DNA of 64,000 bases from an uncultured beta proteobacterium (GTDB lineage: Bacteria > Pseudomonadota > Gammaproteobacteria > Burkholderiales > SG8-39). Location of the stretch: positions 3,148 through 67,147 of the forward strand of contig CAVVGT010000005.1 in NCBI GenBank assembly GCA_963747775.1, read 5' to 3'. Under the pieces are notes generated by a model that searched no databases, was not told the DNA's origin, and saw nothing but the letters and a program-made list of their open reading frames with translations. This document shows positions 8,433 to 51,740 of the stretch, piece after piece (position 1 is the stretch's first letter; each line of letters opens with the position of its first letter). The position numbers and the translations under genes were made by a program.

Positions 8433-8515
8433 GGAGCGCGGCGAGTCTATCAGGGCGCACCGCGGGCCGGCGACGGCCGCGCTACCATCGCGCCTTCCCG
8501 CAAGCGAGGATCGCG

Positions 8516-9628
8516 ATGCGCATCTCCCCGAACGGCCGCCCGCCCTTCCGCGCCGACCACGTCGGCAGCCTGCTCCGGCCCGCGCCGCTGCGGCACGCCT
8601 TCAAGCGCCACGCCGAGAAGGCGATCTCCGACGCCGAGCTCGGACGGATCCAGGACGAGGCAATTCGCGACGTCGTCAAGCTGCAGGAGGCCTGCGGCCT
8701 CCAGGTCGTGACCGACGGCGAGTTCCGGCGCATCTCGTACTGGGCGCGGTTCGTGAGCCTGACCGACGGCCTGACCGTGAAGGAGGCGGCGTTCCGGTTC
8801 CGCGACGAGCACGGCCACGAGTCGGACTTCACCGCGCCGCACGTCGTCGGCAAGGTGAAGCGGAGCGGCGACATCGCGGTGGACGAGTTCCGGTTCGTCC
8901 AGGGGATCACGCAGGCGACCCCGAAGATCACGATGCCCGCGCCGTCGACGATGCACTTCTGGCGCGGCACGAATTACGCGGACCCGGGGATCTACGCCGA
9001 TCCGCGGCAGTTCATCGTCGACCTCGGCAAGGTCTACCAGGAGGAGATCGCGGCGCTGTCGGCGGCCGGGGCGCAGTACGTCCAGCTCGACGAGGTCGCG
9101 ATCGCGATGCTGTGCGACCCTGCGGCGCGCGAGCGGGTAAAGGCCGGCGGCAACGATCCGGAAGCGCTCGTCGACCTGTACGTCGACGCGATCAACGCGG
9201 CGGTGAAGAACCTGCCCGCCGGCATGGTGGTCGGCGTGCACATGTGCCGCGGCAACTACAAGGGCAAGTACCTCTCCGAGGGCGGCTACGATTCGATCGC
9301 GGAGAAGCTCTTCGGCCGCGCGAACGTCAACCACTTCCTGCTCGAGTACGACACGCCGCGCGCGGGCGATTTCGCGCCGCTGCGGTTCATGCCCAGGAAC
9401 AAGGGCGTGGTGCTCGGGATGGTGAGCTCGAAGGTCGCGACGCTCGAGCCGCTCGCGGCGCTGGAGCGGCGGGTGGAGGAGGCGGCCCTGCACGTCGACG
9501 GGGACCGTCTCGCGATCAGCCCGCAGTGCGGCTTTGCCAGCACCATCGGCGGCAATCCGGTCACCGAGGCCGACGAGGTTGCGAAGCTGAAGCGCTGCGT
9601 CGAGGCGGCGAGAGCGATCTGGGGCTGA
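8516..9628 (+). CDS. cobalamin-independent methionine synthase (MetE C-terminal domain-only) family protein
   Basis: 370-aa ORF with the typical start ..RADHVGSLLRP.. and CRGN.. / ISPQCGF metal-ligand regions. Confidence 0.75.
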   Translation: MRISPNGRPPFRADHVGSLLRPAPLRHAFKRHAEKAISDAELGRIQDEAIRDVVKLQEACGLQVVTDGEFRRISYWARFVSLTDGLTVKEAAFRFRDEHGHESDFTAPHVVGKVKRSGDIAVDEFRFVQGITQATPKITMPAPSTMHFWRGTNYADPGIYADPRQFIVDLGKVYQEEIAALSAAGAQYVQLDEVAIAMLCDPAARERVKAGGNDPEALVDLYVDAINAAVKNLPAGMVVGVHMCRGNYKGKYLSEGGYDSIAEKLFGRANVNHFLLEYDTPRAGDFAPLRFMPRNKGVVLGMVSSKVATLEPLAALERRVEEAALHVDGDRLAISPQCGFASTIGGNPVTEADEVAKLKRCVEAARAIWG

Positions 9629-27303: not shown

Positions 27304-27510
27304 ATGCTTTACGCCTTCACAATCGCTCGAACAAGGGGCCGAGGGAAGGGTTGGGACCCTTCCCTTCCCAACCGGGCCCCCTTGTAGATCCCCCAGCAAT
27401 GCTTTACGCCTTCACAATCGCTCGAACAAGGGGCCGAGGGAAGGGTTGGGACCCTTCCCTTCCCAACCTGGCCCCCTTGTAGATCCCCCAGCAATGCTTT
27501 ACGCCTTCAC
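27304..27510. repeat. 95-bp tandem repeat, about 2.2 copies (27304-27398, 27399-27493, partial 27494-27510), each unit starting with the ATG and 17 nt of the downstream gene and containing a palindromic core
   Basis: Units differ at one base (CCGGGC vs CCTGGC). Core GGGAAGGGTtgggACCCTTCCC, with alternative stem GGTTGGGA/TCCCAACC and outer stem AAGGGG/CCCCTT. Confidence 0.85.
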
Positions 27511-29524
27511 CATCTTCGTCTCCGCCTTCCTGCTCTTCCAAGTGCAGCCGATCATCGCCAAGATGATCCTGCCCTGGTTCGGCGGCGGCGCGGCAGTGTG
27601 GACGACGTGCATGTTGTTCTTCCAGCTGCTGCTGGTCGGCGGGTATCTCTACGCGCACTGGACCACCCGCAGCCTCGCCGCGCGCACGCTGGCCGTCGTG
27701 CACGGCGTGCTGCTTGCGCTGGCCGCGGCCGCGCTGCCGATCATCCCGGACGTCGCGTGGAAGCCGCTCGGCGACACCGATCCCGGCTTCTACATCCTCG
27801 GGCTGCTCGCGGTCACGGTGGGGCTGCCGTACTTCATGCTCTCCACCACCGGCCCGCTCGTGCAGGTCTGGTATTCGCGTGCGAATCAGGGCGCGATGCC
27901 GTACCGGCTGTATGCGCTCTCGAACGTCGGCTCGATGCTCGCGCTGCTCACCTATCCGATCGCCGTGGAGCCGTGGCTGCCGACGCGTGCGCAGGCGCTC
28001 GGGTGGTCGGGCGCGTTCGTCGTGTTCGCGATCGCATGCGGCGTGCTTGCCTGGCGCAGCCGCGGCGCGGCGTGGGAGGTGACCGCCGGCGCTCCGGCCG
28101 AGGCGGCCGCGCGACCGACCGCAGGTCGCTACCTACTGTGGGCGGCGCTCGCGGGCACGGCCTCCGTGCTGCTGCTCGCATTCACCAGCCAGCTCTCGCA
28201 GAACGTGGCACCCATTCCGTTCATCTGGGTGCTGCCGCTCGCGCTCTATCTCCTGTCGTTCGTCCTCACCTTCGACGGCCGCGGGTGGTACCGGCGCAAG
28301 GTCTACCTGCCGCTCGCCGCCGCGGGCCTCGTCGGCGTAACGGCGCTGCTGCACTCCGATTTCCGGCATTCGCAGCTCTGGGTGATGCTCCCGGTATACG
28401 CCGCGACGCTGTTCGTCGCGTGCATGGTGTGCCACGGCGAGCTGGTGCGGCTCAGGCCGCCGCCGCGCTACCTGACCGGCTTCTACCTCGCGATCTCGGT
28501 CGGCGGGGCGCTCGGTGGCGTATTCGTCGGTCTGATCGCGCCGCGCATCTTCCTCGACCTGTACGAGCTCCCCGCGGGCCTCGTGGCGATGGGGGCGGTG
28601 GTCGCGGTCGTGCTCGCGCTCGACCAGGCGGGATTCCCCGGCGTGCGGACCTGGCGTGCCGCGGTCTTCGGCGCGGTGCTGCTCGCCGGCGGGCTCGCGG
28701 GAACGCTGTGGTGGATCTACGACGGTTACGCGCGCGACGCGAGCGTGCGCGTCCGCAACTTCTACGCCGCGATGCGCGTGTGGGACTCGGGCGACGGCGA
28801 GGCGGCGCAGCGCGTGCTGACCCACGGCTCGATCACGCACGGCAAGCAGTTCACCAAGCCCGAGCAGCGCAAGCGGATCACGACCTACTACGGCGAGACC
28901 TCCGGCGTCGGCCGCGCGATCCTCGCTGCCGGGCTGAAGGGCCCGGTGCGCGTGGGCGTGATCGGCCTCGGCGCGGGCACGCTGGCCGGGTACGGGCGCG
29001 ACGGCGACAGTTTCCGCCTGTACGAGATCAACCCGCAGGTGATCGACCTCGCGACGAAGCAGTTCAGCTACGTGACGGACTCGCGCGCCAAGGTGGAGAT
29101 GGCGCTCGGCGACGCGCGGCTGTCGCTCGAGCGCGAGCCGCCGCAGCGCTTCGACGTCCTGGCGGTGGACGCGTTCTCGAGCGACTCGATCCCGGTGCAC
29201 CTGCTCACCGCCGAGGCGTTCGCGACCTACTTCCGGCATCTCAGGCCGGGCGGCATCCTCGCGGTGCACATCTCCAACCGCTATCTCGACCTCAAGCCGG
29301 TGCTGCGCGAGGCGGCGGCGAAGTTCGGCCGGGACGCGCGCCTCTTCGACGAGGACTCCGACGAGGGGCGCGGGGTGTACGGCTCGACCTGGGTGCTGAT
29401 CTCGGACGACCCGAAGACCTTCGAGCGCTCCCCGCTCGAGAGCGGCGCGGAGCCGTTGGAAAGCGACAAGACGGTGCGGCTCTGGACCGACGACTACAGC
29501 GACCTCTGGCGCATCCTCAAGTGA
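27494..29524 (+). CDS. fused polytopic membrane / spermidine-synthase-like methyltransferase-fold protein
   Basis: Start MLYAFTIFVSAFLLFQVQPIIAKMILPWFGGGAAVWTTCMLFFQ is typical of this family. C-terminal ..VIGLGAGTLAGY..DVLAVDAFSSDSIPVHLLT.. 676 aa. Confidence 0.8.
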   Translation: MLYAFTIFVSAFLLFQVQPIIAKMILPWFGGGAAVWTTCMLFFQLLLVGGYLYAHWTTRSLAARTLAVVHGVLLALAAAALPIIPDVAWKPLGDTDPGFYILGLLAVTVGLPYFMLSTTGPLVQVWYSRANQGAMPYRLYALSNVGSMLALLTYPIAVEPWLPTRAQALGWSGAFVVFAIACGVLAWRSRGAAWEVTAGAPAEAAARPTAGRYLLWAALAGTASVLLLAFTSQLSQNVAPIPFIWVLPLALYLLSFVLTFDGRGWYRRKVYLPLAAAGLVGVTALLHSDFRHSQLWVMLPVYAATLFVACMVCHGELVRLRPPPRYLTGFYLAISVGGALGGVFVGLIAPRIFLDLYELPAGLVAMGAVVAVVLALDQAGFPGVRTWRAAVFGAVLLAGGLAGTLWWIYDGYARDASVRVRNFYAAMRVWDSGDGEAAQRVLTHGSITHGKQFTKPEQRKRITTYYGETSGVGRAILAAGLKGPVRVGVIGLGAGTLAGYGRDGDSFRLYEINPQVIDLATKQFSYVTDSRAKVEMALGDARLSLEREPPQRFDVLAVDAFSSDSIPVHLLTAEAFATYFRHLRPGGILAVHISNRYLDLKPVLREAAAKFGRDARLFDEDSDEGRGVYGSTWVLISDDPKTFERSPLESGAEPLESDKTVRLWTDDYSDLWRILK

Positions 29525-34651: not shown

Positions 34652-36046
34652 TCACCGCTTCACGTTGAGCCTCACCTTGCCTTTCGCGACCGTGATCGCG
34701 CTCAGCGCGACCCCGGTCGGGCTTCCGTCGTGGGCGCGCGACGAAGGCGTGGTCCGGTCGTTGAAGCTCGACTTCTTCAGGGACCCCGGGAAGAGGTCGC
34801 CCGGGTCGCCGCTGTTCTTGGCAAGCTCCAGATCGCGCTTGCCGTCGGCCTGCGCGAGGCCCACTTTGTAGGCCAGCGGGTTGGTGTTGTCCGACCGGGC
34901 TTCGTCGATGTGCCACACCGCGAGCCCGGAGCCCGGCAGCGACGCATCGCGGCCGGTCGCCTGCCGGTTCTCGAGCAGGAAGTACTCCGGTGCGGACTTG
35001 CCGCCGGTCCACACCCACAGGCAGTCCTTCGCATCCTTCTCGAGCGGGTCGAGGGTGTAGCGCGCGGTCTTGGCCGACCGGGGCTTGATCCAACCGAGCT
35101 TGGAGAGGCACCAGCACGACAGTCGGGTGGGTTTCAGGCCGCCGCCGCCCCAGGATCCGCCACCCATGAGGCACCACTGGCCGACGCCCTCCGAGCGATA
35201 GGACGTGTCGTAGAGGTCCGGCAGGCCCAGCACGTGACCGAACTCGTGCGCGAACACGCCGACGCGCCCGTCCTCGGGTTCCGTCGAGTAGGCGTACACC
35301 TTGACGCCCTGGTTGGTGAACACCTGGGGCAAGGTCCACTTGTGCGACCAGATCATGTTGTTGCGCTTCTGCGGATTGGGCTCCGCCTCGGCGCCGCCGC
35401 CCGCATGGATGAGGAAGATCCCGTCGACGAACCCGTCCCCGTCGGTGTCGAAGCGCGCGAGGTTGTTCGTTTTGCAGTATTCCGTCAGCGCATCGAACAG
35501 CAGGCCCGGAGTGTTGCGCGGGTAGCTCATCCCGGTCCCGCTCTCGCCGTTCGTATAGAACGAATAGGGTTGCGGCGCCCGCACGTATCCGACGACCTCG
35601 CCCGTGACCACCAGCTTGCCGTAGGACATCTCGCGGTAGATCGTCGTCATCGAATCCGGATTCGCCGGATCGAACAGCATGCGCTGGAAGTCGGCTGCCG
35701 GGCGGCTTCCCGGGTTGTCGCTGAAGTCGACCATGAGTGCCAGGGCATGCAGCTTGCGGGGGGCCGCCGTGGCGCGCTCCATGCGCGCGGCGCGCAGGGG
35801 GCGGTTGGCGGGGGCGCGATCGAGCGCCAGGCCGGTCGGCGGATAGAACACCCCGTCGTTGAAGCCCGTCGGGCGCTCCACCGTGGCGGCGGCAACCAGG
35901 CCCATGTAAGCCGCCAGGCGGACATCGGCCGTCGACATCGCGCCGCTTTTCTTGATCGCCTGCTGGATGCTCTTCAGCACGGCACTGGAGGGACGGCAGG
36001 CGGTTGGCCCGTCGTCGTAGCGGTGGGACATCGGGTCGCGCATCAT
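34652..36046 (-). CDS. M6 (immune inhibitor A-like) zinc metallopeptidase domain protein, no signal peptide
   Basis: HEFGHVLGLPDLYD (nt ~35234-35275) and ..LALMVDFSDNPG.. / ..GIFLIHAGGGAE.. are typical of M6. Start uncertain: ATG 36046 chosen, and a TTG at 36208 is also open. Confidence 0.75.
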   Translation of the reverse strand: MMRDPMSHRYDDGPTACRPSSAVLKSIQQAIKKSGAMSTADVRLAAYMGLVAAATVERPTGFNDGVFYPPTGLALDRAPANRPLRAARMERATAAPRKLHALALMVDFSDNPGSRPAADFQRMLFDPANPDSMTTIYREMSYGKLVVTGEVVGYVRAPQPYSFYTNGESGTGMSYPRNTPGLLFDALTEYCKTNNLARFDTDGDGFVDGIFLIHAGGGAEAEPNPQKRNNMIWSHKWTLPQVFTNQGVKVYAYSTEPEDGRVGVFAHEFGHVLGLPDLYDTSYRSEGVGQWCLMGGGSWGGGGLKPTRLSCWCLSKLGWIKPRSAKTARYTLDPLEKDAKDCLWVWTGGKSAPEYFLLENRQATGRDASLPGSGLAVWHIDEARSDNTNPLAYKVGLAQADGKRDLELAKNSGDPGDLFPGSLKKSSFNDRTTPSSRAHDGSPTGVALSAITVAKGKVRLNVKR

Positions 36047-36208
36047 GATCTCCGGCGGTGGGTTCGAATGCGACGGGGTCGCACGGCGTGGCTGCAAGTT
36101 CCGCGCGGTGTCGACCGAAGCGGCGACGCCTAGCTTCCGCGCGAGGCGCCACGCATGGCAATAGGCCGAAAGGCTGACCGCGCGGCCGTGCCAACGCTTG
36201 CGGCGCAA

Positions 36209-37669
36209 TCAGGGGAGGAAGTAGTCGACGTAAAGGGACGGCGTTGCGGGATCGACCGCGACGCGCGCGGCGAAGGCCTTCCACAGCCGCTCGTCGGCGT
36301 GCTTGCGTCTCGGGTCGGTCGCCGTCGGGCCTTTGCCGTCGGCGCGCAGCACGCGCCCGCGGGTCTTTTCCAGCAGATGCGGGTACAGCGACTCGGCCGG
36401 CATGTCCCACTTCTTGGTCTTGTTCGCGAATTGCTGGTCGACCGGGATCGCCGCGACGAGCCCGGGATGCGACATCGCCTCCAGGCCGCCGTCCTTGAGC
36501 GTGGCGTTGTGGCTGCCGTGGTGGCCGACCTTGTAGAACACCGTGCGTGCCAGCAGGTCGTTCGCGCGCACTTCGGTGCGCGTGCCGCCGTCAGTGACCT
36601 TCCACGCGAGCTTCTGCCACGACAGCCAGTTGCCGATCTGCGCATCGGCCGCGAAGAGGAGCACCTCTTTCGTCGCCGTGAACTCGAACGCGAGCACCAT
36701 GCTCAGGTTGTTGACGACGTTGTCCAGCTTGAGCGCGAGCTGTTCGGCGGCGAGCAACCACTGATCGTCGATCGTCCGCCAGCGCTCGTCCGGCGCCCGG
36801 TACCGGGCGACGACCGGCGCCAGGGTCGTCTCAGTGCGCGCCCGCGCGTCGCTCCAGTGCAGGCTCGCCTCGAAGGGACACATCGCCTCCGTCCGGGCCG
36901 CGCCTTCGACGGCCGAGTCCTTGCTCGCGGCAACCGCATCGAGCAGGCCTGCGTAGAAGCCCGAGTCGGCGCCGAGGCCGTACATCTCCGAGCCCTTCTT
37001 GCCGAGCAGCTTGCCGAGGAGCTTTTCGTCGCGGGGCGGGGCGAGCACGTAGATGCGCACCCCCGGCAGCCACGCCGGGGCGAGGAGGTCGCCCGGCTCG
37101 CAGTAACGGGGGTCGGGTGCAAGCTCGCGGAGTGCGGCCAGCGCGGCATCGGTTCCACGCACGCCCGCGGCGCTCACCGGCCCGAAGAACGACAGGATCT
37201 GTTCGATCGCCGCCCCGCGCGCGCGGGCCGCCTCGTCCGGCGAGACGGCAAGTCGAGCCAGCGCCCTTCGCGCCCCGTCGAGCTGCAGCGCGGTCGCGCG
37301 GGTCCGCTCGCGGCCCTCCGGATCGTGCGGGTTCTCGGCCCAGGAGAGCCAGACCTCGTCGATCCGCAGCGCCTTGAACTCGTCCCGCGCGTCGAAGAAC
37401 CCGGACAGGTGGTCCCAGTGCGGATGGGTGCCGACAATCGCACTCACGCGGCCGCCGGCTTCCTTTGCGACGTTGGCAGCGATGCGCTGTGCCCACTGCT
37501 TGCTGTCGGGCGTCCCGCCGAGCACGCCGCAGTCGATCAGGATGTGGCTGGGCTTCGGGCCGGTGTAGAACGAGAGGAGGAACGCGTCGCCGATACCCTG
37601 GCGATACATCCGGATGCGTACCCTGGGGCGGCGCCGCGCGGCGCGCTTGCTTGCGACGGTCTCAGCCAT
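36209..37669 (-). CDS. metallo-beta-lactamase-fold hydrolase
   Basis: HPHWDH motif (nt ~37409-37426) after ..GDAFLLSF..ILIDCG.. Start MAETV overlaps the upstream stop (ATGGCTGA). Confidence 0.75.
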   Translation of the reverse strand: MAETVASKRAARRRPRVRIRMYRQGIGDAFLLSFYTGPKPSHILIDCGVLGGTPDSKQWAQRIAANVAKEAGGRVSAIVGTHPHWDHLSGFFDARDEFKALRIDEVWLSWAENPHDPEGRERTRATALQLDGARRALARLAVSPDEAARARGAAIEQILSFFGPVSAAGVRGTDAALAALRELAPDPRYCEPGDLLAPAWLPGVRIYVLAPPRDEKLLGKLLGKKGSEMYGLGADSGFYAGLLDAVAASKDSAVEGAARTEAMCPFEASLHWSDARARTETTLAPVVARYRAPDERWRTIDDQWLLAAEQLALKLDNVVNNLSMVLAFEFTATKEVLLFAADAQIGNWLSWQKLAWKVTDGGTRTEVRANDLLARTVFYKVGHHGSHNATLKDGGLEAMSHPGLVAAIPVDQQFANKTKKWDMPAESLYPHLLEKTRGRVLRADGKGPTATDPRRKHADERLWKAFAARVAVDPATPSLYVDYFLP

Positions 37670-39680
37670 GGTCGGTCTCCGGATTGAACCCATGGAGCTG
37701 CGCGAGCTGCCGCGACGGGTCGGTCTCGTCCAGCGCGCCGAAGTACATGCCCGCGAGCCCCGCGCGCCAGCCGACGCGGAATGCGCGCTCGGCCTCGAGG
37801 CGGGTGTCGCTCCGGGCGTTCTTGCGGATCACGTAATCGATGTCGCCCGAGCGCAGGTCCACGACGATCGTGCACCCGCCGCGAAACATGAACGACCCGG
37901 CGCCCGGCGCGCCGTCCGCTTCGGCGCGCTCCTGCACGATCGACACCAGTCCCTGCGGCACGCCGGGGCCCGCGGGCGAGGACTTGCGGGTGAACTGCAG
38001 CGAGCGCAACTCGAAGGCGGCGTGGCCGGGGCGCAGATCGAGTCCCATGTTCTCGGCGAGGACGTTCCGCTGCTGCGTGTCGAGCGACCGGAGCAGGCGC
38101 TGCACCGAATCGTGCAGCTCGCCGCGCCACTTGCTGAGGTGCGCGAAGATGTCGCGGCGGGGATCCGCGGCGTCGCGATTGTCGAGATACGCGTATTCGT
38201 CCGCGTAAGGCCTCAGGACGAGCGGTCGCCCGCGCAGCAGCGCCCGGACCTCCGCGCTCGGGCGGTCCCACACGAGGTTGTCCACCGCGAGCGACCGCAG
38301 GCCCTTCGGGTAGATCCCCCGCGCGCGGAACGCCTCCACGATCGCGACTCGATAGCCCAGCCGGTCCTGCGGCACGACTTGGATGTCCGCAGTGATGAGC
38401 GCGCGGAGATAGTCGCCGAACGTGAGATCGACCGGCGGGCAGTAGTCGAGCGCGCGCACGCAGATCGTCAGCAGGTGGCCGGCGGCCTTCGCGGCCTCGT
38501 CGGCGAGCCTTTCGACCAGGTCGGGATGCAGCGCGCCTTCCGGCAGCACGCCGCTGCCCCCCGTGGCGATGCGGACGAGATCGACGGTGCGCCGCTCGTA
38601 GATCCTGAGAAACGCATCGAACACGGCGGCGACGAGGATCGCGCCGCGCTCGTGGGGCTCCTGCGTGCGCATGAGCGCCGCCGGATCGGGCTCGAGCCGC
38701 GTCCAGGCCCGCGTCTGCGGATCGACGTGGCCGATCGCGCTGCGTAACGCCCCGTACCGGCCCGTCGCCTGACCGAACTGGACCGCGAGCTCGGCGAGCA
38801 GGTTGCGCGTGCGCAGGTCGCCGCGGGCCCGGGCGATCTGGTGGCGCAGCACGCCGGGCAGCGAAAAATGCTGGAACAGCGCGACCAGGTCGGCGAAGGC
38901 CTCGTGGAACGCGAGCGTGTCCGGATTGCTCGGGTGGAGCAGGGACGGGTGAACCCCGTCGAGGATGGCGTGCGTCGTCTCGTGGGCCACGATGTCCTGG
39001 GACAGGCACGTGAACACGGTGCCGCCGGGATAGACGCGGCCCGGATCGGTGTCGGCGGCGGGGAAGTAGCCGAAGAGCAGCGCCTTGCGCTGCGGATCGT
39101 AGAACGCGTTCTGCTGCCGCAGCGCGTGCGGGTAGACGCGCAGCTGACCGACATAGACGGCTGCGCCGGAGGGCAGCATGTGCGGCGACCACAGCACCCG
39201 GCGCCCGAGGGCGCGCTCGAAGTGCTCGATCGTCCGCATCGCCACCGCGTACACCATCTGCTGGTGGAACTGCGGGTTGGCTTCGGACGGCGCGAGCCCG
39301 TTCTGGGCGAGCAGGGCGCGATCGTCGAGGTCGACGGGCTGGTAGAAACATTCGCTCGCAGGATCGTAATCGATCACGTCCAGGTAGTCACCGCGCGGCC
39401 CGGGCTCGAGCTTTGGCTCCCACGGCACTTCGTAGACGATCTCGTTGATCTCGACGGACTCGAGCTCGGTCGAGAGCTGGGGGTCGAATGCGTATCCGCG
39501 CAGGAGCCGTCGGGTGGGCTGCGGCGGCGCGACGGCGCGCGGCGGCCAATAGCCCTGGGTCGAAGCGCTCCGCGTCGAGGCCGGCTTGCGGGCCTGGCCC
39601 GCGGAGCGGCGCGCGCCCTTGGCCGGATGCGGATTCCCGAGAGCCTTCTTTCGTAGCTTGGACGCTGCCATCGTGCTCAC
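37662..39680 (-). CDS. thermolysin-like (gluzincin, M4-like) zinc metallopeptidase with basic disordered N-terminus, no signal peptide
   Basis: ..QQNAFYDPQRKALLFGY.. + VAHETTHAILD (nt ~38970-38984) + FHEAFADLVA parallels the thermolysin NAFW / HELTH / NEAISD active-site layout. GTG 39680 or ATG 39671 as start. Confidence 0.7.
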   Translation of the reverse strand: MSTMAASKLRKKALGNPHPAKGARRSAGQARKPASTRSASTQGYWPPRAVAPPQPTRRLLRGYAFDPQLSTELESVEINEIVYEVPWEPKLEPGPRGDYLDVIDYDPASECFYQPVDLDDRALLAQNGLAPSEANPQFHQQMVYAVAMRTIEHFERALGRRVLWSPHMLPSGAAVYVGQLRVYPHALRQQNAFYDPQRKALLFGYFPAADTDPGRVYPGGTVFTCLSQDIVAHETTHAILDGVHPSLLHPSNPDTLAFHEAFADLVALFQHFSLPGVLRHQIARARGDLRTRNLLAELAVQFGQATGRYGALRSAIGHVDPQTRAWTRLEPDPAALMRTQEPHERGAILVAAVFDAFLRIYERRTVDLVRIATGGSGVLPEGALHPDLVERLADEAAKAAGHLLTICVRALDYCPPVDLTFGDYLRALITADIQVVPQDRLGYRVAIVEAFRARGIYPKGLRSLAVDNLVWDRPSAEVRALLRGRPLVLRPYADEYAYLDNRDAADPRRDIFAHLSKWRGELHDSVQRLLRSLDTQQRNVLAENMGLDLRPGHAAFELRSLQFTRKSSPAGPGVPQGLVSIVQERAEADGAPGAGSFMFRGGCTIVVDLRSGDIDYVIRKNARSDTRLEAERAFRVGWRAGLAGMYFGALDETDPSRQLAQLHGFNPETDHG

Positions 39681-39778
39681 GCCTTCGTCGCCGCGCGCGC
39701 GTCGCTGTCCGGCGCGACCGGAGCGTCGAGCGCCGGGGGGAATGCGCTCGTCTCGAACAGGGTGAACGGATCCGGCAT
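39677..39778 (-). CDS. candidate 33-aa small ORF (MPDPFTLFETSAFPPALDAPVAPDSDARAATKA) translationally coupled to the thermolysin-like peptidase
   Basis: AAGGAA 6-8 nt upstream of the ATG. Stop TGA overlaps the GTG at 39680 (GTGA). High GC3. Too short for the ORF track. Confidence 0.3.
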   Translation of the reverse strand: MPDPFTLFETSAFPPALDAPVAPDSDARAATKA

Positions 39779-39836: not shown

Positions 39837-42800
39837 TCAGCGCTTGCTCTGTATGGCCTCCTGCAGCAGGCTTGTGGCCCTGAGCGGCGGGATCCACACT
39901 TCCAGGTCGCCCGGCTTCTCCTTCTTGGAGCGCGTCGCGTCGAGTGGCAGAAGCGACAGCCGCAGCGTGTATCCCCCCTGCGAGAGGGCGCGTTCGACCC
40001 GGTCGCGGACTTGGGCGGCGGCCCTCTCGTCCTGCGGGAAGAAGTACCGCACGTTCCCCGAGGTCCGCCTGCCGGGGACCTCCTCCGATCCCTTCACGAC
40101 CAGACCGGGAATCTGGCCGAGCGCTTTCGCCACCTGGTCCACGAGTTGCGCATCGCTTCCGTCCGCGTAGTGGAGGAACACCCGCGTCACACGCACGTCG
40201 GCGGGCGCGGTCTTGTCGCCGAGTTGCGCGAGGCGGCGCTCGGCCAGCGTACGCGTGTCGAGACGCATGGTGAGGGAGGCGACCTTGCGGTAATCCGCGA
40301 TTGCGGCGTCGACCCGGCCCATCCGCTGCAGCAGCGATCCGCGCTTGAGGTAGGCCTCGACGTCAGCCTCGACGTCATCCGGACGCAGCTCGATCGCCTT
40401 CTCGTAGTCGGCGAGCGCGGCGTCGTTCTTCCCCTGGGCATCGTGGACGACGGCACGGCGATAGTACATGGCGGGGTCCGCGGGCCGGAGATCGATCGCT
40501 ATGTCGAAGTCTTCCTTCGCGCCGGCCCAGTCGCGGGTCGTCGCGCGCAGGGCGCCGCGCAGCAGGTAGTTCTCGACCCGGCCCGGCCTGAGCTTGATCG
40601 CCATCGTCAAGTCGGCAATCGCGTTGTCATACTCCGGGTCGGCGAGTTCCGCGTACGCCTGTCCCCGCTTCGCGTACACGCGGTCGAGGTCGCTCTCGTG
40701 ATAGTCGGGGATCGCTTTCGTGTAGCGTTCCATCGCCTTCGGGTAGTTCCGCTCGGCGGCGAACGCGTCCGCTTCCGCGACCAGCAAGATCGCCACCTCG
40801 GCGCGCCCGCGCGCAAGTTGCTGTTCCGCCATCCACCACCACCAGCCGAGCGCCAGCGCCAGGCTGCAGACGACCGCCAACGCGACGGCCGCCCAGCCCC
40901 GCGTCCGGGCCGCCTTGCTGCCACGCATCTCGCCGAGGCCGATGAACTCGAGCTCCTGCGCGTTCAGATCGGCGCCGCGGGAGTCGCGCCATGCTTTGGC
41001 TGCTTGGAGCTGCGCGCCGGAGAGCAGCCCGCCGGGGTCCCGCTTGCTCTTCTCCCAGTCCGCGCGATACGCGCCCAGCAGTTCGCGCCAGCGCAGGAAC
41101 TCGCGGTCGGCTTCGACCCATTCGCGCAGTCGCGGCCATTGCTGGGCGAGCACCGGGTGCACGAGCTCGGCTGCCGGCGCGTCGGACTCGGCGGTGCAGA
41201 GCACGACGAGCCGCGACGTCGCGAGTTGCTCGAGCAGGGCGGCGACGGCTTCGCCGGGCGCCGCCTTCGACTCGAGCTCGGACCGGAGCGCGCGCCGGAT
41301 CCGGTCCGCGGCCGGATGCGGACCGACGTTCACGAGCCGCGGCAGGACGCGCTGCGCGAGCGCGCGCTCCGCGTCGTTGAGGCCGTCCAGGGCCGCGTCG
41401 GCGCGCGCGACGAGTAGCCCGCGCACACCGCCCATGTCGTCGTAGGCCGCATTGGTGAGAAAGCCTTCCCGGCGCCGCACGTACAGGCTCTGCAGCAACA
41501 GCTGGAGGAGCGGCAGGCGAAACGCCTCGGTGCCGAGATCCTCGATGATGCGGTCGACGAGGCCGGGTTCGAACGTGAGTCCGGCGCGTGCCGTCGGTTT
41601 CTCGATCGCCTGGCGCAGCTCGTCGCGCGTAAGATCGCCGAGTCGGACGACGCCCGCGTCGTCCGCGGGCACCGGCAGCGGCGTGCCCGCGAGCCGGCGG
41701 ACGAAGTCCGAGCGCGCCGCGATCACCGTCACGATGTCCGGCCGTTTGCGCTCGAGTGCGGCGACGCGCTCGAGGAAGCGCGTTCGCAGGCGGGCGTCGA
41801 AGCTCGGCGCAAACACTTTCTCGAGCTCGTCGATGAAGAGCACGTGGCGCGCGTCGGCGCCCGCGCCGGGCGCGAGGCGGGCCAGGACGCGCGTCAGGCT
41901 GGCGACCGGATCGGTGCCGGGCACGATGCGCTCGAGCCGGCGGGGCGCATCCGCGGCGGCCTGGCTGCGCCGCAGCTCGGAGAACGCGCCGGCCATCACC
42001 AGCGAGCGCTTGCCGCTGCCGCTCGGCCCGAGCACCCAGACGCGTGTTCGGGAGCGCAGGTGGTCGAGCAGCCGCGCGCGCAGCTCGTTGCGTCCGAAGA
42101 AGAATGCAGCGTCGTGCTCCTGGAACCGCTCCAGCGGCCGGAAGGGGCTGCTGACCGCCACCGCGGTCCCGCGGGTCGTCCAGGTCAGCGTGTGCTCCTG
42201 ATCGACGCCCTCGGGCGGCGCGCCTTCGACTGTCGGCTCCGGCCGCGCGGGCGCGAGCGCGGCGATGCGCGCGACGAGCGGGTCGAGCTGGTTCGCCGAT
42301 GCGCCTTCGCGCAGGTCGAGGATCTCCTCGCCGAGCCCTGGCGTCGGTGCCGGGCTCGCGCTCGGCAGCAGCACCTTGAACGTCACGAAATTGCGGCTCG
42401 CACGCACTGCCGCGACCACGTGTTGGAGTCCCTCCGATTGCGCCGGCGTGAGGCCGCCCGGTCCGATGAAGACGACGAGCGCCCTGGAATGGAAAAGCTG
42501 CTGCTCGCTGCGGCGCTGCCACTCGGGCGGCGGCACCGCGTCCAGCTCGTCCACGAAGGCGCGCAGATCGGCGCGCTTCAGCGCCGCCGCGAACGCCTCG
42601 GCGGCAGCGCTGTCCGCGGTCGCGGTCACGATGTATGCGTCGTAACTGGCGTATCGCGCCGTGAGGTCGTACTGGGCCGCGACCTGCGGCGGGGTGTCGC
42701 CGGCGTCTTGCGCGAGCGCGGCGAGCCGGGTCCCGGGTGCGGCGAGATAGGTCAATGCGTCGGCGAGGCGGTGGAATGCGGTGGCGATGCGCTCCCGCTG

Positions 42801-43652
42801 CGCCACGTTGGCGGGATCGGCGAGGATGCGCTCGTCGAACGCATACTGGGGCTCGTAGGGCACGAGCAGGTCGGCGAAGCCGATGCCTCGCGCGCGCAGC
42901 GCCTCCGGCACGCTGTCGCCGAAGGTCGCCGCGAAGCGGGCCATGAACTCGTCGAGCAGCTCCCGCCGGCGCTGCTCGATGCGGGCCGGGACGACCACGA
43001 TCTGCGGCGGACGGCTCTGCCGCAGCGCAAGCACCTGCGGCGAGAGGAAGTCCGCAGCGACGTTCTGCGTGCCGCGCACGTTCTGGTGGTTCGCCGCACA
43101 CATCATGACGATCACGTCGCCGAGCTGGTAGGCGCAGATGCCGCCCATCTCGGTGACGCCGGTGCGGCTGTCGACCAGCACGAGGTCGTAGCGCTCCGGG
43201 ACGAGCTGGCCGCGCAGCCACTCGAAGAAGAGCTCGCCTTCCCAGTTGAAGTAGAAATCCTGCCAGTCGAAGCTGCGCACGTTGAGCGCGTAGTGCTCCA
43301 GCTGCGCCGGGTCCTCGCGTTCGCCCGCCGGCATGAGGTCGAGGCAGCCGTCTCCGGGCAGTCGCTCGTACACCGGCAGGATGAACCGGCGCACGTCGCG
43401 GAAGTCCGCGCTCGCAGCCTCGCCCGAACCGACCGACATCGCGTGCTTGAACTCGAGCAGCAGGTCGAGGAGGCCGGCGTGACGGCGCGCGCTCGGCTGA
43501 TGGATCTGGAAGTACTGCTCCAGCCCGGGCGCTTCGAGATCGAAGTCGATCATGAGCACGCGCGCGCCGCGCCGGGCGAGGATGTCCGCGACGTTCGCCA
43601 TCGCCATCGAGCGGCCGACGCCGCCCTTGTACGAGTAGAACGTGACGATCAC
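39837..43652 (-). CDS. 1271-aa multidomain protein: ParA/MinD-like ATPase (KGGVGR) - TIR-like module - STAND-type P-loop NTPase - TM helix - TPR repeats - C-terminal alpha/beta domain
   Basis: YSYKGGVGRS..DSRTG; YDAYIVTATADS..; PFRPLERFQEHDAAFFFGRNEL..VWVLGPSGSGKRSLVMAG..LFIDELE; WAAVALAVVCSLALALGWWWW; repeated A..Y..AI.L.P TPR pattern. GTG start overlaps the upstream stop (GTGA). The upstream 62 codons of ORF 39837..43838 are R-rich overlap. Confidence 0.8.
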   Translation of the reverse strand: MIVTFYSYKGGVGRSMAMANVADILARRGARVLMIDFDLEAPGLEQYFQIHQPSARRHAGLLDLLLEFKHAMSVGSGEAASADFRDVRRFILPVYERLPGDGCLDLMPAGEREDPAQLEHYALNVRSFDWQDFYFNWEGELFFEWLRGQLVPERYDLVLVDSRTGVTEMGGICAYQLGDVIVMMCAANHQNVRGTQNVAADFLSPQVLALRQSRPPQIVVVPARIEQRRRELLDEFMARFAATFGDSVPEALRARGIGFADLLVPYEPQYAFDERILADPANVAQRERIATAFHRLADALTYLAAPGTRLAALAQDAGDTPPQVAAQYDLTARYASYDAYIVTATADSAAAEAFAAALKRADLRAFVDELDAVPPPEWQRRSEQQLFHSRALVVFIGPGGLTPAQSEGLQHVVAAVRASRNFVTFKVLLPSASPAPTPGLGEEILDLREGASANQLDPLVARIAALAPARPEPTVEGAPPEGVDQEHTLTWTTRGTAVAVSSPFRPLERFQEHDAAFFFGRNELRARLLDHLRSRTRVWVLGPSGSGKRSLVMAGAFSELRRSQAAADAPRRLERIVPGTDPVASLTRVLARLAPGAGADARHVLFIDELEKVFAPSFDARLRTRFLERVAALERKRPDIVTVIAARSDFVRRLAGTPLPVPADDAGVVRLGDLTRDELRQAIEKPTARAGLTFEPGLVDRIIEDLGTEAFRLPLLQLLLQSLYVRRREGFLTNAAYDDMGGVRGLLVARADAALDGLNDAERALAQRVLPRLVNVGPHPAADRIRRALRSELESKAAPGEAVAALLEQLATSRLVVLCTAESDAPAAELVHPVLAQQWPRLREWVEADREFLRWRELLGAYRADWEKSKRDPGGLLSGAQLQAAKAWRDSRGADLNAQELEFIGLGEMRGSKAARTRGWAAVALAVVCSLALALGWWWWMAEQQLARGRAEVAILLVAEADAFAAERNYPKAMERYTKAIPDYHESDLDRVYAKRGQAYAELADPEYDNAIADLTMAIKLRPGRVENYLLRGALRATTRDWAGAKEDFDIAIDLRPADPAMYYRRAVVHDAQGKNDAALADYEKAIELRPDDVEADVEAYLKRGSLLQRMGRVDAAIADYRKVASLTMRLDTRTLAERRLAQLGDKTAPADVRVTRVFLHYADGSDAQLVDQVAKALGQIPGLVVKGSEEVPGRRTSGNVRYFFPQDERAAAQVRDRVERALSQGGYTLRLSLLPLDATRSKKEKPGDLEVWIPPLRATSLLQEAIQSKR

Positions 43653-45409
43653 TTGTTCGTCGCGTGCTGGTAGATCAGACTGCTCACCCCGCGGCGGCGA
43701 TCCGGGCCGACGATGTTCTCGAAGCGCTCGAGCTTGGACGGGTCGGCGCGCGGCCGCGTGAGGATGTCGAGCGTGCCGGGCAGGCTCGCGTGCAGCCAGC
43801 GCCGCAGGCGGCGCTCCTCGCCGACGCCGAACTCGCACGCCGGGTCGAGATCGAGCTCGAAGCGGTCGAACGCGCCGGAGAGCTGCTTGCGGGTCCGCGT
43901 CTCGAGCAGCTGGTTCACGGGCGAGCCGCTATCGTCGAGCGGGGACACGGTCACGATCGCGACCTGGCCCATGGCGACGAAGGACGCGCACGCCTCCGCG
44001 ATCGCGCTGTGGAAGAGCGACAGCTCGTCTACGAGCGCAACGCACCCGGTGAGCGCGATTTGCTGGTAGATGGGCCGCAGCTCGGGATGCGCGCGATCGA
44101 GCCAGGCGTCGAACGGGTAGTACTGGAGCTTGATCTGGCGCCGCTGCGCGCTGCCGGCCACGCGCCGCCCGTTCAGCCGTTTGGCGATGTCGGCGCCGAT
44201 GTCGCGCACGGTGGTGCCGCCGAACGGCTTCCACTGGCGGCGACCCGCGCCGTAGCGCGCGTCCGGTCCGCCGGCGCGCTCGAGTGCGGCCTTGAGCTCC
44301 ATGAATTGCTTGTAGCGGTCCGGCCCGAGCTCGCCCTGGAGCGCGTCGCTGTGCTCGAGCAGCGCGACGGCTTCGTCGCGCGTCATCGCGATCACGACGC
44401 AGGGCACGCCGACAGTCGGCAGCCCGGGCTGCGTCGGCCGTCCGGCCATCGTGGCGACGACCTGGTTCGCCGCGCCACCGGCCGTCACGTCGATGAGCTT
44501 GGTAAAGGGCCACGCGGGCGGCAGCGCGTCGGGCTTCACCCCGGCGAGCAGGCCGACCAGCCAGCCGGTGCGAGTCTCCAGCACCTCCAGCGCGCGGGCG
44601 ACCTCGGCGGGACGGGAGGCGAGCTGCTCGAGGCCGGCGGGGCTGAGCCAGACGAGCGCGGAGTGGCACTGGATCGCGAGCTGCTCGAGGTCGGAAAACT
44701 CCGCCTCGGTCTCCGCGAACAGCGCCTCGGGGGCGAGCAGCGCGCTCAGCCCGGTCTTCTTGAGCTCGTCGGCGAAGGCCCCCGCCGCGTCCTGGTCGAG
44801 GCCCGGCGCATAGGCGAGCGCCGCGCCAAACGTGACCTCGCGCTGGAGCCGCGCAGGCGCTGCGGCCGAGACCGGTGGCTTCGGTGGGGGTGCGCCGCGC
44901 TGCGTCCACAGCGAGACCGCGTTCGCGACCAGGCCCGCGAGCTCGGTCGGCCCCTTGAAGAAACTCACCGTGTGCGCCTTGCCCAGCTCCTCGCGCAGCG
45001 CCTTGATCTTCGCGCCGGCGCCGTTCTCGCCGGTCGCGATGTCCATGAACTCCTCGGCCCACGGGGTCTTGGGGTCGAGGAGGAAGATCAGACACTGCTC
45101 GGCGCCGAGCGCGCCGAGCGCGGTACGGTACTCGGCCTCGGTGATCGACCACTTTTGCGGGTTCGCCGCCTCGTCCGGCACGTAGCCGTAGCGCTTCGCG
45201 AAGATGCCGACGTAGAGGTCGCACGGCGGCAGGTTCTGCGCGGAGTCGCCGGCGATGTCGCGTAGGCATTTCGCCAGGGGGCGCGAGCCGTCGGCGACGT
45301 ACTCCTCCATGCCGACGACCTCGTGTCGGAGCTGGCGCAGGCTCCTCGCGACCTCCTCGCGGTGGTCCTTCAGGTCCTGGAACGTCGAAGAGAGATAGAT
45401 CCTTGCCAT
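43649..45409 (-). CDS. DUF4062-type N-terminal domain protein (586 aa) with uncharacterised middle and C-terminal regions
   Basis: MARIYLSSTFQDLKDHREEV..DLYVGIFAKRYGYVP.. matches the DUF4062 pattern I know. GGGGGAGG RBS. First gene after a 139-nt gap. Confidence 0.65.
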   Translation of the reverse strand: MARIYLSSTFQDLKDHREEVARSLRQLRHEVVGMEEYVADGSRPLAKCLRDIAGDSAQNLPPCDLYVGIFAKRYGYVPDEAANPQKWSITEAEYRTALGALGAEQCLIFLLDPKTPWAEEFMDIATGENGAGAKIKALREELGKAHTVSFFKGPTELAGLVANAVSLWTQRGAPPPKPPVSAAAPARLQREVTFGAALAYAPGLDQDAAGAFADELKKTGLSALLAPEALFAETEAEFSDLEQLAIQCHSALVWLSPAGLEQLASRPAEVARALEVLETRTGWLVGLLAGVKPDALPPAWPFTKLIDVTAGGAANQVVATMAGRPTQPGLPTVGVPCVVIAMTRDEAVALLEHSDALQGELGPDRYKQFMELKAALERAGGPDARYGAGRRQWKPFGGTTVRDIGADIAKRLNGRRVAGSAQRRQIKLQYYPFDAWLDRAHPELRPIYQQIALTGCVALVDELSLFHSAIAEACASFVAMGQVAIVTVSPLDDSGSPVNQLLETRTRKQLSGAFDRFELDLDPACEFGVGEERRLRRWLHASLPGTLDILTRPRADPSKLERFENIVGPDRRRGVSSLIYQHATNK

Positions 45410-45548
45410 GGCCTCCCCCGCTAGCGCCGATTGTTGCAAAGATTCATGGCGCTCAGCGATAGGCAGCATAGCCTAGTATGCGGACGGCATAGTGTGCCCG
45501 CGAGCACCCGGCGGGCGGTCGCGACACCGTTCGCGGGGCGCTTCGACG

Positions 45549-47144
45549 TCAACTCTTCAACGCTGCGGCAATCGACCGGATCGAGATTCCTTCGTTCGCG
45601 GCGTACGTGCCGTCCTTGCCGTTCAGCCGCGGCATGCCCATCTTGCCGCCCTTGTGGTGGAGCGCGATCACCTCCCAGAGCTTGGCGTTGAACACGGGGC
45701 TGCCCGAGCTTCCGCCTTCGGTGGGTGCGCGGTAGTGGAGGCGCCAGACGTCCGGGATCTGCGGCTTGCCCGCCGGCGGGCCCTCGTGATCGAGGAGCTC
45801 GTTGTCCTGGAACGAGAACGCGAGGTCGCGTCCGCCCGGATGGCCGATGATGTAGACGCGTGCCGTCGATTCCACCACCGGCAGCGCGGCGGCGACCGGC
45901 AGCGGCTCGATCCCCGTCACCGGGGTTTTCATGCGCAGCAGGCTCGCGTCATGGCGATCGGGCGGCGAGCTCCAGAGGAGCTCGCCGACGGCATAGGCGC
46001 GGTCCGCACCGGCGGCTTCGAAGACGACCTCCGCCGCGTCGGGCTGGATCCCCGGGCTCGCGCCATGCTCGTTGACGACGTGGAAATTGGTCAGGACCAG
46101 CAGCTCGTCCCTGGGCTCCCGGCCGAGGTCGCCGGCGCGCACCAGAAACCCCGTGCCGATCCGGCTGCCGAGTTGCGGGCGGATCGCGGCGACGGCGAGC
46201 GCGCGGTCGAGCCCGGTCTTCCACCAGCGGTACGTCTGCGGCCCCTCCGTGCCGAGCACCGCCTCGAGCTGCGATCGGTCCGGCGCCGGCGCTGTCCGCA
46301 AGCGCTGCAGCTCCGCACGCCCGAGCTCCAGTCCGCCGCCCGGCAGCGCCATGAGTCGCGCACGCAGGATGTTGACGAGGCCCCGGCCACGGTCATCGGT
46401 CTGTTCCAGGTCCCACACACCGGTGAACTGTCGTACGGTGCTCGCGATCTGAAACGCCTTGGCGTCGTCTGCAGCCGCATACGCCCGGACGTTGCGCTCG
46501 ACCGCGTCCCAGTCGCCCAGACCCAGCGAGGCTTCGGCCAGCGTCGGCAGATACCACTCGTCGCGCTGCTCTCTGGGCGTCGCCTCGAGCGTCGCAATCA
46601 CCTGCTGCGCGATGTCGCGGGGCTGAAGGTCCGCGGCGAGGCGCAGGCCCAGCCCGCGGGCGCGGGTGAGCAGCGCGATGAGGTTCACGCCGTGCCACGT
46701 GTTCGCGGCATGCTCCTCGAACGGCTTGCGATACGCGACGATCGCCTGCTTCAGCGCCTCGCGCGCGCCCGCGCTCGTCTTGTCGCCGGCATCGAAGAAG
46801 ATCTGCTTGTAGGCGCGGCCGAGCAGGCCCGTCGCCTCGGCCGCCTCGGGGTCGGTCTTCGGCAGCCGCTGGGCGAGCGGCCGCAGGAGATCGATCGCCG
46901 CGGTGGCCTTGCCGGTGTCGATCAGGTACTGCGCGTAGAGGCGGCGGTTCTTCGCGTCCTTCGGGTCCCGCCGGCTCACTGCCTCGGCGACCTGACCCAT
47001 GATCTCGTAGTCGCGGACGTTGCGCAGCGCCTCGACGAGCCGCTTGGCGCCGGCGAGATCCTCGACGCTCCCCAGCCCGCGCAGGTGCTGCAGCGCGTCT
47101 TTCGCGCGCTCGCGCAGCTCGTCGACGGTCGGCTCGGCGCTCAT
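45549..47144 (-). CDS. DUF4071 (TPR-like, MAP3K TRAF-binding-type) domain fused to C-terminal trypsin-like serine protease
   Basis: Start MSAEPTV within ORF 45549..48728. ..NTWHGVNLIALL.. is the DUF4071-type region. Protease triad context: NFHVV (His), DASLL (Asp), GGSSGSPV (Ser). Confidence 0.75.
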   Translation of the reverse strand: MSAEPTVDELRERAKDALQHLRGLGSVEDLAGAKRLVEALRNVRDYEIMGQVAEAVSRRDPKDAKNRRLYAQYLIDTGKATAAIDLLRPLAQRLPKTDPEAAEATGLLGRAYKQIFFDAGDKTSAGAREALKQAIVAYRKPFEEHAANTWHGVNLIALLTRARGLGLRLAADLQPRDIAQQVIATLEATPREQRDEWYLPTLAEASLGLGDWDAVERNVRAYAAADDAKAFQIASTVRQFTGVWDLEQTDDRGRGLVNILRARLMALPGGGLELGRAELQRLRTAPAPDRSQLEAVLGTEGPQTYRWWKTGLDRALAVAAIRPQLGSRIGTGFLVRAGDLGREPRDELLVLTNFHVVNEHGASPGIQPDAAEVVFEAAGADRAYAVGELLWSSPPDRHDASLLRMKTPVTGIEPLPVAAALPVVESTARVYIIGHPGGRDLAFSFQDNELLDHEGPPAGKPQIPDVWRLHYRAPTEGGSSGSPVFNAKLWEVIALHHKGGKMGMPRLNGKDGTYAANEGISIRSIAAALKS

Positions 47145-47155
47145 TGCGCCCGGCC

Positions 47156-49767: not shown

Positions 49768-49781
49768 GGCGCGGGCCGCGC

Positions 49782-51736: not shown

Positions 51737-51740
51737 GCAG

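Follow-up and report, generated by a model that had tools for sequence, protein, structure and literature searches.

A thermolysin-like metallopeptidase paired with a ComEC-like metallo-beta-lactamase-fold protein: a candidate protease-gated pro-nuclease module in a betaproteobacterial conflict-system island

The window analysed here is a stretch of 64,000 nt from an uncultured beta proteobacterium (assembly GCA_963747775.1, contig CAVVGT010000005.1, positions 3,148 to 67,147). On its minus strand it encodes H, a thermolysin-like zinc metallopeptidase of 672 aa (37662-39680), and a ComEC-like metallo-beta-lactamase-fold hydrolase of 486 aa (MBL, 36209-37669), a predicted DNA nuclease. H and MBL are core components 1 and 2 of a two-gene cassette that is self-contained, horizontally mobile and conserved in many other genomes. 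A first-pass annotation of the sequence had regarded H, MBL and a downstream M6 (InhA-like) peptidase as a triad placed behind the STAND gene and suggested a regulated proteolytic effector set; the conserved unit is the H-MBL cassette and not the triad. With a probability of about 0.55, H-MBL is a metalloprotease-gated pro-nuclease module located in a conflict-system island, for which an anti-phage or abortive-infection role is most likely.

The window has a G+C content of ~70%, and spurious open reading frames (ORFs) are abundant. A frame analysis of the G+C content at third codon positions (GC3) delineated five consecutive minus-strand genes: DUF4062, STAND, H, MBL and M6. The last three, located directly after the STAND gene, have GC3 values of 0.88-0.90. 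Pfam, NCBIfam and PADLOC agree with the STAND, DUF4062, MBL and M6 assignments. The three metal hydrolases reported in the first-pass annotation are encoded by real genes; their metal sites are intact and all motifs quoted were found. The start codon of H is a GTG at 39680 with an alternative ATG at 39671. H is indeed located directly downstream of the STAND gene, at a distance of 156 nt. H does not start at position 39778, previously taken as the end of the run; this is where a 33-codon ORF in a different frame begins with an ATG. The ATG of MBL overlaps the H stop codon as ATGGCTGA (8 nt, 37662-37669, minus strand), which could be read directly as claimed before, and a GGAG is found 8 nt upstream. 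The overlap is an arrangement indicating that translation of both genes is probably coupled. In a Kyte-Doolittle scan, no hydrophobic stretch started in the first 30 residues of H, MBL or M6, i.e. no N-terminal export signal was found in any of the three proteins. The maximum 12-residue mean is -0.2 for H, 1.0 for MBL (in the first core strand) and 0.6 for M6. This supports the earlier view of cytoplasmic relatives of normally secreted peptidases.

H comprises a disordered Lys/Arg-rich N-terminus (residues 1-55), a catalytic region, a helical domain and a C-terminal NTF2/SnoaL-like domain (~557-640). The motifs N191-A-F-Y194, H233-E-T-T-H237 and H259-E-A-F-A-D264 are invariant in an alignment of 32 sequences. 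All complete H genes in 80 genomic loci taken from one-genome-per-species collections encode HExxH together with HE[AGS]x[AGS]D, and so do 147 of the 150 top-ranking representatives of the family. H displays the gluzincin signature, composed of H233ExxH237, the third zinc ligand E260 and D264, which is invariant both in the alignment and in the 80 loci; the zinc site is also unchanged in fusions of H to S8 subtilases (see below). An AlphaFold2 (AF2) model based on 32 homologues (predicted local distance difference test, pLDDT, 75; predicted template-modelling score 0.81) has the HExxH and E260/D264 motifs in confident helices. In a Foldseek search of this model covering 350,000 PDB chains, the two best matches were thermolysin 4ow3 and vibriolysin 3nqy_B, both with a probability of 0.99. 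The next matches (probability ≤0.18) were NTF2/SnoaL-like folds, namely PhzA/B, the CaMKII hub and limonene epoxide hydrolase. They cover short stretches of the model and are taken as its predicted C-terminal domain.

With thermolysin and other M4 enzymes (PF01447, PF02868; 4ow3, 3nqy), which are its best fold matches, H shares the HExxH helix, a Glu-x-x-x-Asp helix ~27 residues later and an NA[FY]Y strand motif before the site. In contrast to them, H is cytoplasmic, has neither signal peptide nor propeptide, is paired with an MBL and carries extra helical and NTF2-like C-terminal domains. FTP/PepSY propeptide domains were not detected in H, which is not built like the secreted pre-pro-enzymes of M4. 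Window H does not reach the gathering score of the M4 Pfam models PF01447 and PF02868, and no Pfam, NCBIfam, PADLOC or PHROG family was assigned to it. A match to EAD2 (E 0.007, below cut-off, 4 of 32 members) overlaps the catalytic helices and was discarded as spurious. H is connected to M4 through intermediates: tandem H-H proteins contain N-terminal copies that are homologous to window H over the full length (E 1e-120 to 1e-156) and score 26-28 bits with PF01447 at a cut-off of 22.4. One distant H homologue is named 'peptidase M4' by PGAP. Based on predicted fold, motif and the transitive M4 link, but lacking Pfam membership, H is therefore classed as a thermolysin-like gluzincin of a new family. 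Hence, the term 'thermolysin-like' of the first-pass annotation holds for motif and predicted fold, but not as Pfam membership. In a full HMMER scan of 1.84 billion representatives, the family comprised 4,238 clusters (50% identity) at E≤1e-3, of which 1,212 also passed E≤1e-30; none of the libraries and sources checked gives it a functional annotation.

A long form of H with ~1170 aa was considered as an H-MBL fusion, which was ruled out: the protein consists of two H copies in tandem, each of them homologous to window H over its full length. Such proteins (P0007-P0012 and others; L065, L077) are mainly found in Actinomycetota of the Solirubrobacterales/Gaiellales type. In their N-terminal copy, HExxH is often altered, and HEGFAD and NAYY are retained. 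The duplication hints at H working as a dimer.

MBL matches PF00753 (2e-5) and the PADLOC model of LmuA (3.9e-9). Its metal motifs HxHxDH (H82, H84, D86, H87) and HHGSHN (383-388) are invariant or nearly so. MBL does not belong to the characterised sequence families represented by the NCBIfam equivalogs Avs1a (NF041809) and 6A-MBL: both scored under their cut-offs, 6A-MBL with 15.4 bits instead of 220. PADLOC and PHROGs yielded only weak LmuA and Avs1a N-terminal matches, and a comparison of the sequence with PDB chains yielded nothing meaningful apart from N-terminal motif matches. The AF2 model of MBL has a pLDDT of 82. Its top Foldseek match is the MBL domain of ComEC, 9ic4, with E 6.7e-9 and a template-modelling (TM) score of 0.70 on the 266-residue target, followed by the phosphodiesterase Pce, INTS11 and RNase Z/J. 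Compared to ComEC, MBL contains ~185 extra residues in two insertions (~113-187 and ~213-322) located on both sides of a core strand. The insertions hold loops of low pLDDT with the nearly invariant hydrophobic residues F161 and Y230 ('MYGL'). When both insertions were deleted in silico, 9ic4 became the top PDB sequence match in two co-linear pieces, albeit with a weak E of 0.03. The earlier proposal that the MBL fold could be a nuclease is supported by the ComEC nuclease domain as best structural match.

In 68 of the 80 loci, an MBL homologue was found 3' of H on the same strand, usually within 200 nt, and in 67 of these 68, the H and MBL alignments are within ~330 nt of each other (median 96 nt). 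Typically, H has ~620 aa and MBL ~490 aa. The cassette occurs in Pseudomonadota, Acidobacteriota, Chloroflexota, Bacteroidota, Verrucomicrobiota, Planctomycetota, Actinomycetota and one archaeon. Even distant branches with 37-41% (H) and 30% (MBL) identity retain both the pairing and the motifs. The pairwise identities among H proteins are correlated with those among their MBLs (Mantel r=0.70, none of 2000 permutations as high). By clustering, no neighbour family besides MBL was found in more than 10 of the 80 loci. The distribution across phyla is patchy, and the nearest relatives of the window copy are from other classes.

On plasmids, H-MBL is found in the company of defence and mobility genes. 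In Rhizobium rhizogenes, it is located between a CBASS with CapH/CapP-like regulators and an AAA+HNH pair, in R. leguminosarum between DarTG, CBASS and a Hachiman-like DUF1837+helicase pair. The Methylorubrum extorquens copy lies beside two SIR2 genes and an insertion sequence, the Deinococcus copy beside DUF4238, an integrase and a ThiF-type gene, and the Hymenobacter copy beside an integrase and Tn3. Among 77 immediate neighbours in loci from metagenome-assembled genomes (MAGs) inspected with PADLOC and Pfam, only patatin (7) and Tle1-like proteins (4) recur.

It was not until 2025 that protease-gated pro-nucleases emerged as a recurring principle of bacterial immunity; the enzymes involved are serine (trypsin, subtilase) and cysteine (caspase) proteases. 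ComEC-like MBLs with two 'gating' insertions are pro-nucleases that are activated by site-specific cleavage; the cut is made by a trypsin-like protease that is encoded next to the MBL and carries a fused HamA, Avs or LmuA sensor or, in the case of Canu, by a caspase (PMC12799240, PMC12642450, bioRxiv 10.1101/2025.09.03.673762). The gating insertions of these pro-nucleases bear the cleavage sites (PMC12799240, PMC12642450). A third MBL clade adjoining subtilases was reported, but not characterised ('Clade 3' in PMC12642450; legend to fig. S2 in PMC12799240). A metallopeptidase is mentioned neither in the main texts of PMC12799240 and PMC12642450 nor in the supplement of PMC12799240. The idea of regulated proteolytic activation put forward in the first-pass annotation matches these reports (PMC12799240, PMC12642450).

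The trypsin-like + MBL modules (HamMAB, Avs1a/Avs1b, Avs2/Avs4-MBL, Lamassu and DRT variants) resemble H-MBL in having an adjacent, co-inherited protease gene. Furthermore, they share with it a ComEC-like MBL with two insertions, intact catalytic sites and a location in defence islands. In contrast to their serine proteases, H is a zinc metallopeptidase with a thermolysin-like fold. Canu (CanABC, PMC12799240) also consists of separate genes for a protease and an MBL pro-nuclease in variable loci with accessory genes; its protease, however, belongs to the caspase family and carries Ig-like domains, and homology to H was not detected. In comparison with the subtilase clade, the constant partner in H-MBL is the H metallopeptidase, whereas S8 is an optional N-terminal fusion that is missing in the window copy.

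Based on these parallels, H would act as a cytoplasmic thermolysin-like zinc endopeptidase and MBL as a ComEC-type metal-dependent nuclease kept inactive by its two inserted segments. Upon an infection cue, H would cleave the insertion loops of MBL and thereby release the nuclease activity. The cue might be sensed by H itself, via the NTF2-like C-terminal domain or oligomerisation, or, in some relatives, by a sensor that is fused to H or adjacent to it. Such activation would resemble that of the MBL pro-nucleases linked to trypsins, caspases and subtilases (HamMAB, Avs1/2/4-MBL, Canu). In other genomes, patatin, DUF2235/Tle1-like, PLD and fused S8 proteins would be accessory hydrolases that replace one another in the module. 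In the window, the module would adjoin an independent DUF4062 + TIR-nSTAND1 system, with M6 as a lineage-specific neighbour.

Several observations weigh against this interpretation. The similarity of H to thermolysin and vibriolysin is weak (Foldseek E 4.5e-3 to 2e-2, TM 0.46-0.50 on the target), part of the N-lobe is modelled with low confidence, and the NAFY strand is located in such a part. PF01447 matched none of 32 single-domain members, window H included, at E≤0.01. Searches of PDB chains with the H sequence and the H family profile yielded nothing meaningful, and the profile found no M4 chain. For MBL, the best NCBIfam model, Avs1a NF041809, scored 22.7 bits at a cut-off of 420 and covered the N-terminal ~70 residues only. 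In contrast to the trypsin-type systems, the protease gene is located upstream of MBL, and most copies of H do not contain a recognisable fused sensor. The window-family MBL is only remotely similar to the published ones, and H-MBL is known from sequences and models. That the family corresponds to the published subtilase-associated MBL clade is no more than probable. As H and MBL are adjacent genes, co-transfer would suffice to explain their co-variation. Most genes immediately flanking H-MBL in MAG loci are ordinary ones, with few PADLOC matches. The association with defence is suggestive and rests on annotated plasmid examples, not on statistics. The genes, their motifs, folds, pairing and co-variation as well as the genomic contexts are results of the analysis; a defence role, cleavage of MBL by H and nuclease activity are inferred from them.

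The hydrolases accompanying H-MBL vary considerably. An S8 subtilase is fused to the N-terminus of H in 18 of the 80 loci, and the gene adjoining this MBL family is annotated as 'S8 family serine peptidase' in ~40 of the 150 best family representatives. A patatin-like phospholipase is located near H-MBL in 15 and a Tle1-like DUF2235 hydrolase in 5 of the 80 loci, a PLD in one distant branch. On the Rhizobium plasmid pRle248a, H-MBL is accompanied by patatin, and on Methylorubrum pCMU01, DUF2235 is found together with S8-H and MBL. Neighbour-joining analysis of H implies a minimum of 7 changes in the presence of S8 and of 10 in that of patatin. The five nearest relatives of window H outside its own lineage are all S8-H fusions; therefore, window H, which has no S8 domain, probably lost it. 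Its basic disordered N-terminus probably corresponds to the former S8-H linker. A different fusion was found in P0419 (JGI 3300047160, 10.5-kb contig), which encodes a 1112-aa nSTAND1-H protein followed by a 466-aa Lactamase_B gene. This is the layout of the Avs protease-STAND + MBL systems with H in the protease slot. In P0419, a faint Metallophos gene precedes the fusion. Other rare fusions of H involve TPR-S, GDPD, Amidase_2 and DUF7379 domains. Two distant branches were seen on plasmids: pBq66S1MBa of Bradyrhizobium quebecense (L135) carries a PLD-like protein, a 'peptidase M4' and an MBL, and pAvCG78b of Agrobacterium vitis (L134) an H-like protein, an MBL and DUF2235 adjoining a pair of UvrD and PD-(D/E)XK genes. 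On the Hymenobacter monticola plasmid (L130), an 'AAA family ATPase' gene encoding 798 aa (6571-8964) ends 25 nt before H. This ATPase could be a sensor partner in the Bacteroidota copies of the module.

A more far-reaching interpretation, which we put forward as tentative, considers H-MBL an autonomous immune module with a fourth class of activating protease. Here, H would sense infection by means of its NTF2-like or oligomerising C-terminal domain and license zymogens, always MBL and optionally patatin, DUF2235, PLD or S8, and the subtilase-associated clade of the literature would be defined by H. The loss of S8 in the window together with the abutting nSTAND1 gene could then represent a new STAND-to-metalloprotease-to-nuclease cascade. 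H is named by no domain library, which may explain the silence of domain-based surveys. If H-MBL is confirmed as a metalloprotease-gated module, a fourth protease class would join the mechanism and the subtilase clade would have to be re-interpreted. Furthermore, a compact sensor-less system for the study of protease triggering as well as candidate protease-activated lipases would be at hand.

It appears unlikely that H, MBL and M6 are the proteolytic effector set of the STAND/TIR protein, which together with DUF4062 would detect infection and direct them, all five genes forming one operon-level system in the lineage. The STAND gene (39837-43838, minus strand; maximal ORF, 1333 aa) encodes, according to Pfam and NCBIfam, a KGGVGR-type ParA-like ATPase followed by TIR_2, nSTAND1 and TPR domains. 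Its true start is probably not at 43838, but near the stop of the DUF4062 gene (43649-45469, minus strand; PF13271 at 6e-19). In favour of control by STAND, the five genes share one strand, only 156 nt separate STAND from H, and a terminator-like site was not found on the minus strand, although the promoter/terminator scan was uninformative. The arrangement is retained in relatives with 82-93% identity (L001, L086, L137), the nSTAND1-H fusion with downstream MBL in P0419 makes a coupling of STAND to H plausible, and window H has apparently lost the S8 domain of its nearest relatives. However, a STAND relative was found within 10 kb of H in only one of the 80 loci. This locus, L001 from a 93%-identical betaproteobacterial MAG, is also the only one with relatives of both the window STAND and DUF4062. 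STAND homologues with 41-43% identity (L138, L139) have DUF4062 directly upstream with a 4-nt gene overlap, but unrelated genes and no H-MBL downstream. The STAND protein possesses a TIR effector domain of its own, and mere adjacency within an island would suffice for a conservation that is limited to close relatives. The general tie to the STAND gene supposed in the first-pass annotation is thus not borne out; in view of P0419, a STAND-H link may exist locally.

DUF4062 and TIR-nSTAND1 form a conserved two-gene unit of their own: in L137, L138 and L139, the STAND homologue is immediately preceded by a DUF4062 gene. The STAND homologues constitute a big family with variable C-termini (TPR, WD40, FGE-sulfatase). 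With NLR-like nSTAND1/TIR systems (PF20703, NF047398), the window STAND shares the domain order and the variable C-terminal repeat sensors; unlike a conserved partner of H-MBL, it belongs to a separate unit with DUF4062. Most likely, DUF4062+STAND and H-MBL are separate units that abut only in the window lineage. In L137, the 82%-identical STAND relative has TPR-S proteins upstream, one of them with a Trypsin_2 domain.

Between STAND and H, the 33-codon ORF (39677-39778, minus strand) is preceded by AAGGAA resembling a ribosome-binding site 6 nt upstream, and its stop codon overlaps the GTG of H. It is open and ungapped in L001, L086 and L137, and was annotated by the gene caller in L137. As a coding gene it was rejected: substitutions by codon position (45/29/29) bear no coding signature, and the ORF is absent outside the window lineage. 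It may be a conserved regulatory spacer.

We attribute a slim chance to M6 being a genuine third component in the lineage, either as a zymogen effector cleaved by H or as a replacement for the lost S8. The maximal M6 ORF (34652-36208, minus strand) carries HEFGHVLGLPDLYD. Its identity as M6-like peptidase, assumed in the first-pass annotation, was corroborated by PF05547 (3.6e-30, 105.7 bits, cut-off 22), TIGR03296 (8e-64, 216 bits, cut-off 110.8) and the InhA structure 4yu5 (5.9e-21). Both curated cut-offs are exceeded, and the HExxHxxGxxD motif of the family is present as HEFGHVLGLPD. Because orthologues align only from there, the start is most likely the ATG at 36046 with a GGAG 5 nt upstream. 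This yields a protein of 464 aa (34652-36046) and a 162-nt gap after the MBL stop. A moderately hydrophobic segment (residues 45-56 of the revised protein) follows sequence that is conserved in orthologues. M6 shares with InhA (PF05547, TIGR03296; 4yu5) the catalytic domain and HEFGHxLGLPDxYD, but has 464 aa compared to the 756-aa chains of InhA, no N-terminal signal peptide and no C-terminal InhA domains.

A metagenome scan with M6 yielded 47 loci. Copies with ≥88% identity represent the window lineage: M6 lies downstream of H and MBL in L083, L084 and L086, and L085 retains the end of MBL at the contig edge beside M6. These loci and L001, in which M6 also lies beside MBL, speak for a functional connection. 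So do the high variability of the accessory hydrolase slot (S8, patatin, DUF2235, PLD), the missing signal peptide of M6, the lack of the S8 of its nearest relatives in the window lineage, and a distant M6-caspase fusion just upstream of H-MBL in an archaeal MAG. The latter fusion of M6 to Peptidase_C14 (30% identity in M6) is encoded in the Euryarchaeota MAG ADurb.BinA087 (L046:7735-9363); apart from it, only L001 among the 80 H loci contains M6. Against M6 as a component, more than 20 orthologues with 57-85% identity were found without H or STAND on the contig; their neighbours are GYD, ParAB, ImuB-like and oxidoreductase genes. Below 88% identity, orthologues have no H, MBL or STAND partners; the exceptions are L087 and L116, where the opposite strand encodes a remote relative of MBL (42-48% identity). 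In L099, M6 is located near the same flanking gene as in the window (27446-29524), but the island is missing. In addition, the 162-nt gap between MBL and M6 differs from the overlap of H and MBL. A tie of M6 to the downstream Liv-type ABC transporter genes was considered and rejected, as synteny was not consistent.

M6 is therefore, on the contexts of its 57-85%-identical orthologues, probably a lineage-specific neighbour and not part of the conserved module. The triad proposed in the first-pass annotation does not hold as a unit: M6 accompanies H-MBL only in the window lineage. The annotation had named, as one outcome speaking against it, a triad that is not conserved with STAND genes and instead belongs to an unrelated degradative operon. 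The lack of conservation was observed for the triad; an unrelated degradative operon does not describe H-MBL. When such loci are annotated, H-MBL should be treated as a system separate from the neighbouring STAND/TIR and M6 genes.

Comparably doubtful is the view that H-MBL is a conflict module in which H does not activate MBL. H would instead hit a phage or host target directly, or serve as sensor or scaffold, and MBL would act independently, as a constitutive or otherwise regulated nuclease or as a hydrolase of signalling nucleotides or phosphodiesters. The closest folds of MBL after ComEC, the phosphodiesterase Pce and RNA-processing enzymes, would fit, and cleavage of MBL is a prediction. 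H has extra domains including the NTF2-like one, and the accessory lipases suggest several effectors acting in parallel. On the other hand, the catalytic sites of H and MBL are invariant together and their pairing is strict. The two insertions of MBL are found at positions analogous to the published gating loops, and the Avs protease-MBL systems have the same layout as nSTAND1-H + MBL.

A non-immune function, either as a cytoplasmic degradative or salvage set or as toxin or virulence enzymes (M4, M6, Tle1-like, PLD, patatin) exported by a non-classical route, is very improbable. In its favour, M4, M6, Tle1, PLD and patatin are classically secreted or delivered by type VI secretion systems, many MAG loci have ordinary neighbours, and H has no PADLOC or PHROG model. 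Against it, secretion-system or VgrG/PAAR genes were not among the neighbour families listed, signal peptides were not found, the distribution is patchy across phyla with copies on plasmids and in defence islands, and MBL with its nuclease-type fold is strictly coupled to H.

Scans of the window for tRNAs, Rfam families and composition gave nothing on the borders of the island. Upstream of the DUF4062 gene, ~1.7 kb (45470-47150, 49770-49800) contain no confidently coding frame despite long ORFs on both strands. Beyond it, the plus-strand gene at 49782-53528 encodes a 1248-aa protein with TPR-S and MAP3K_TRAF_bd domains. Convergent with it, a 518-aa TIR_2 protein is encoded on the minus strand (53462-55018); both genes extend the conflict-system island.

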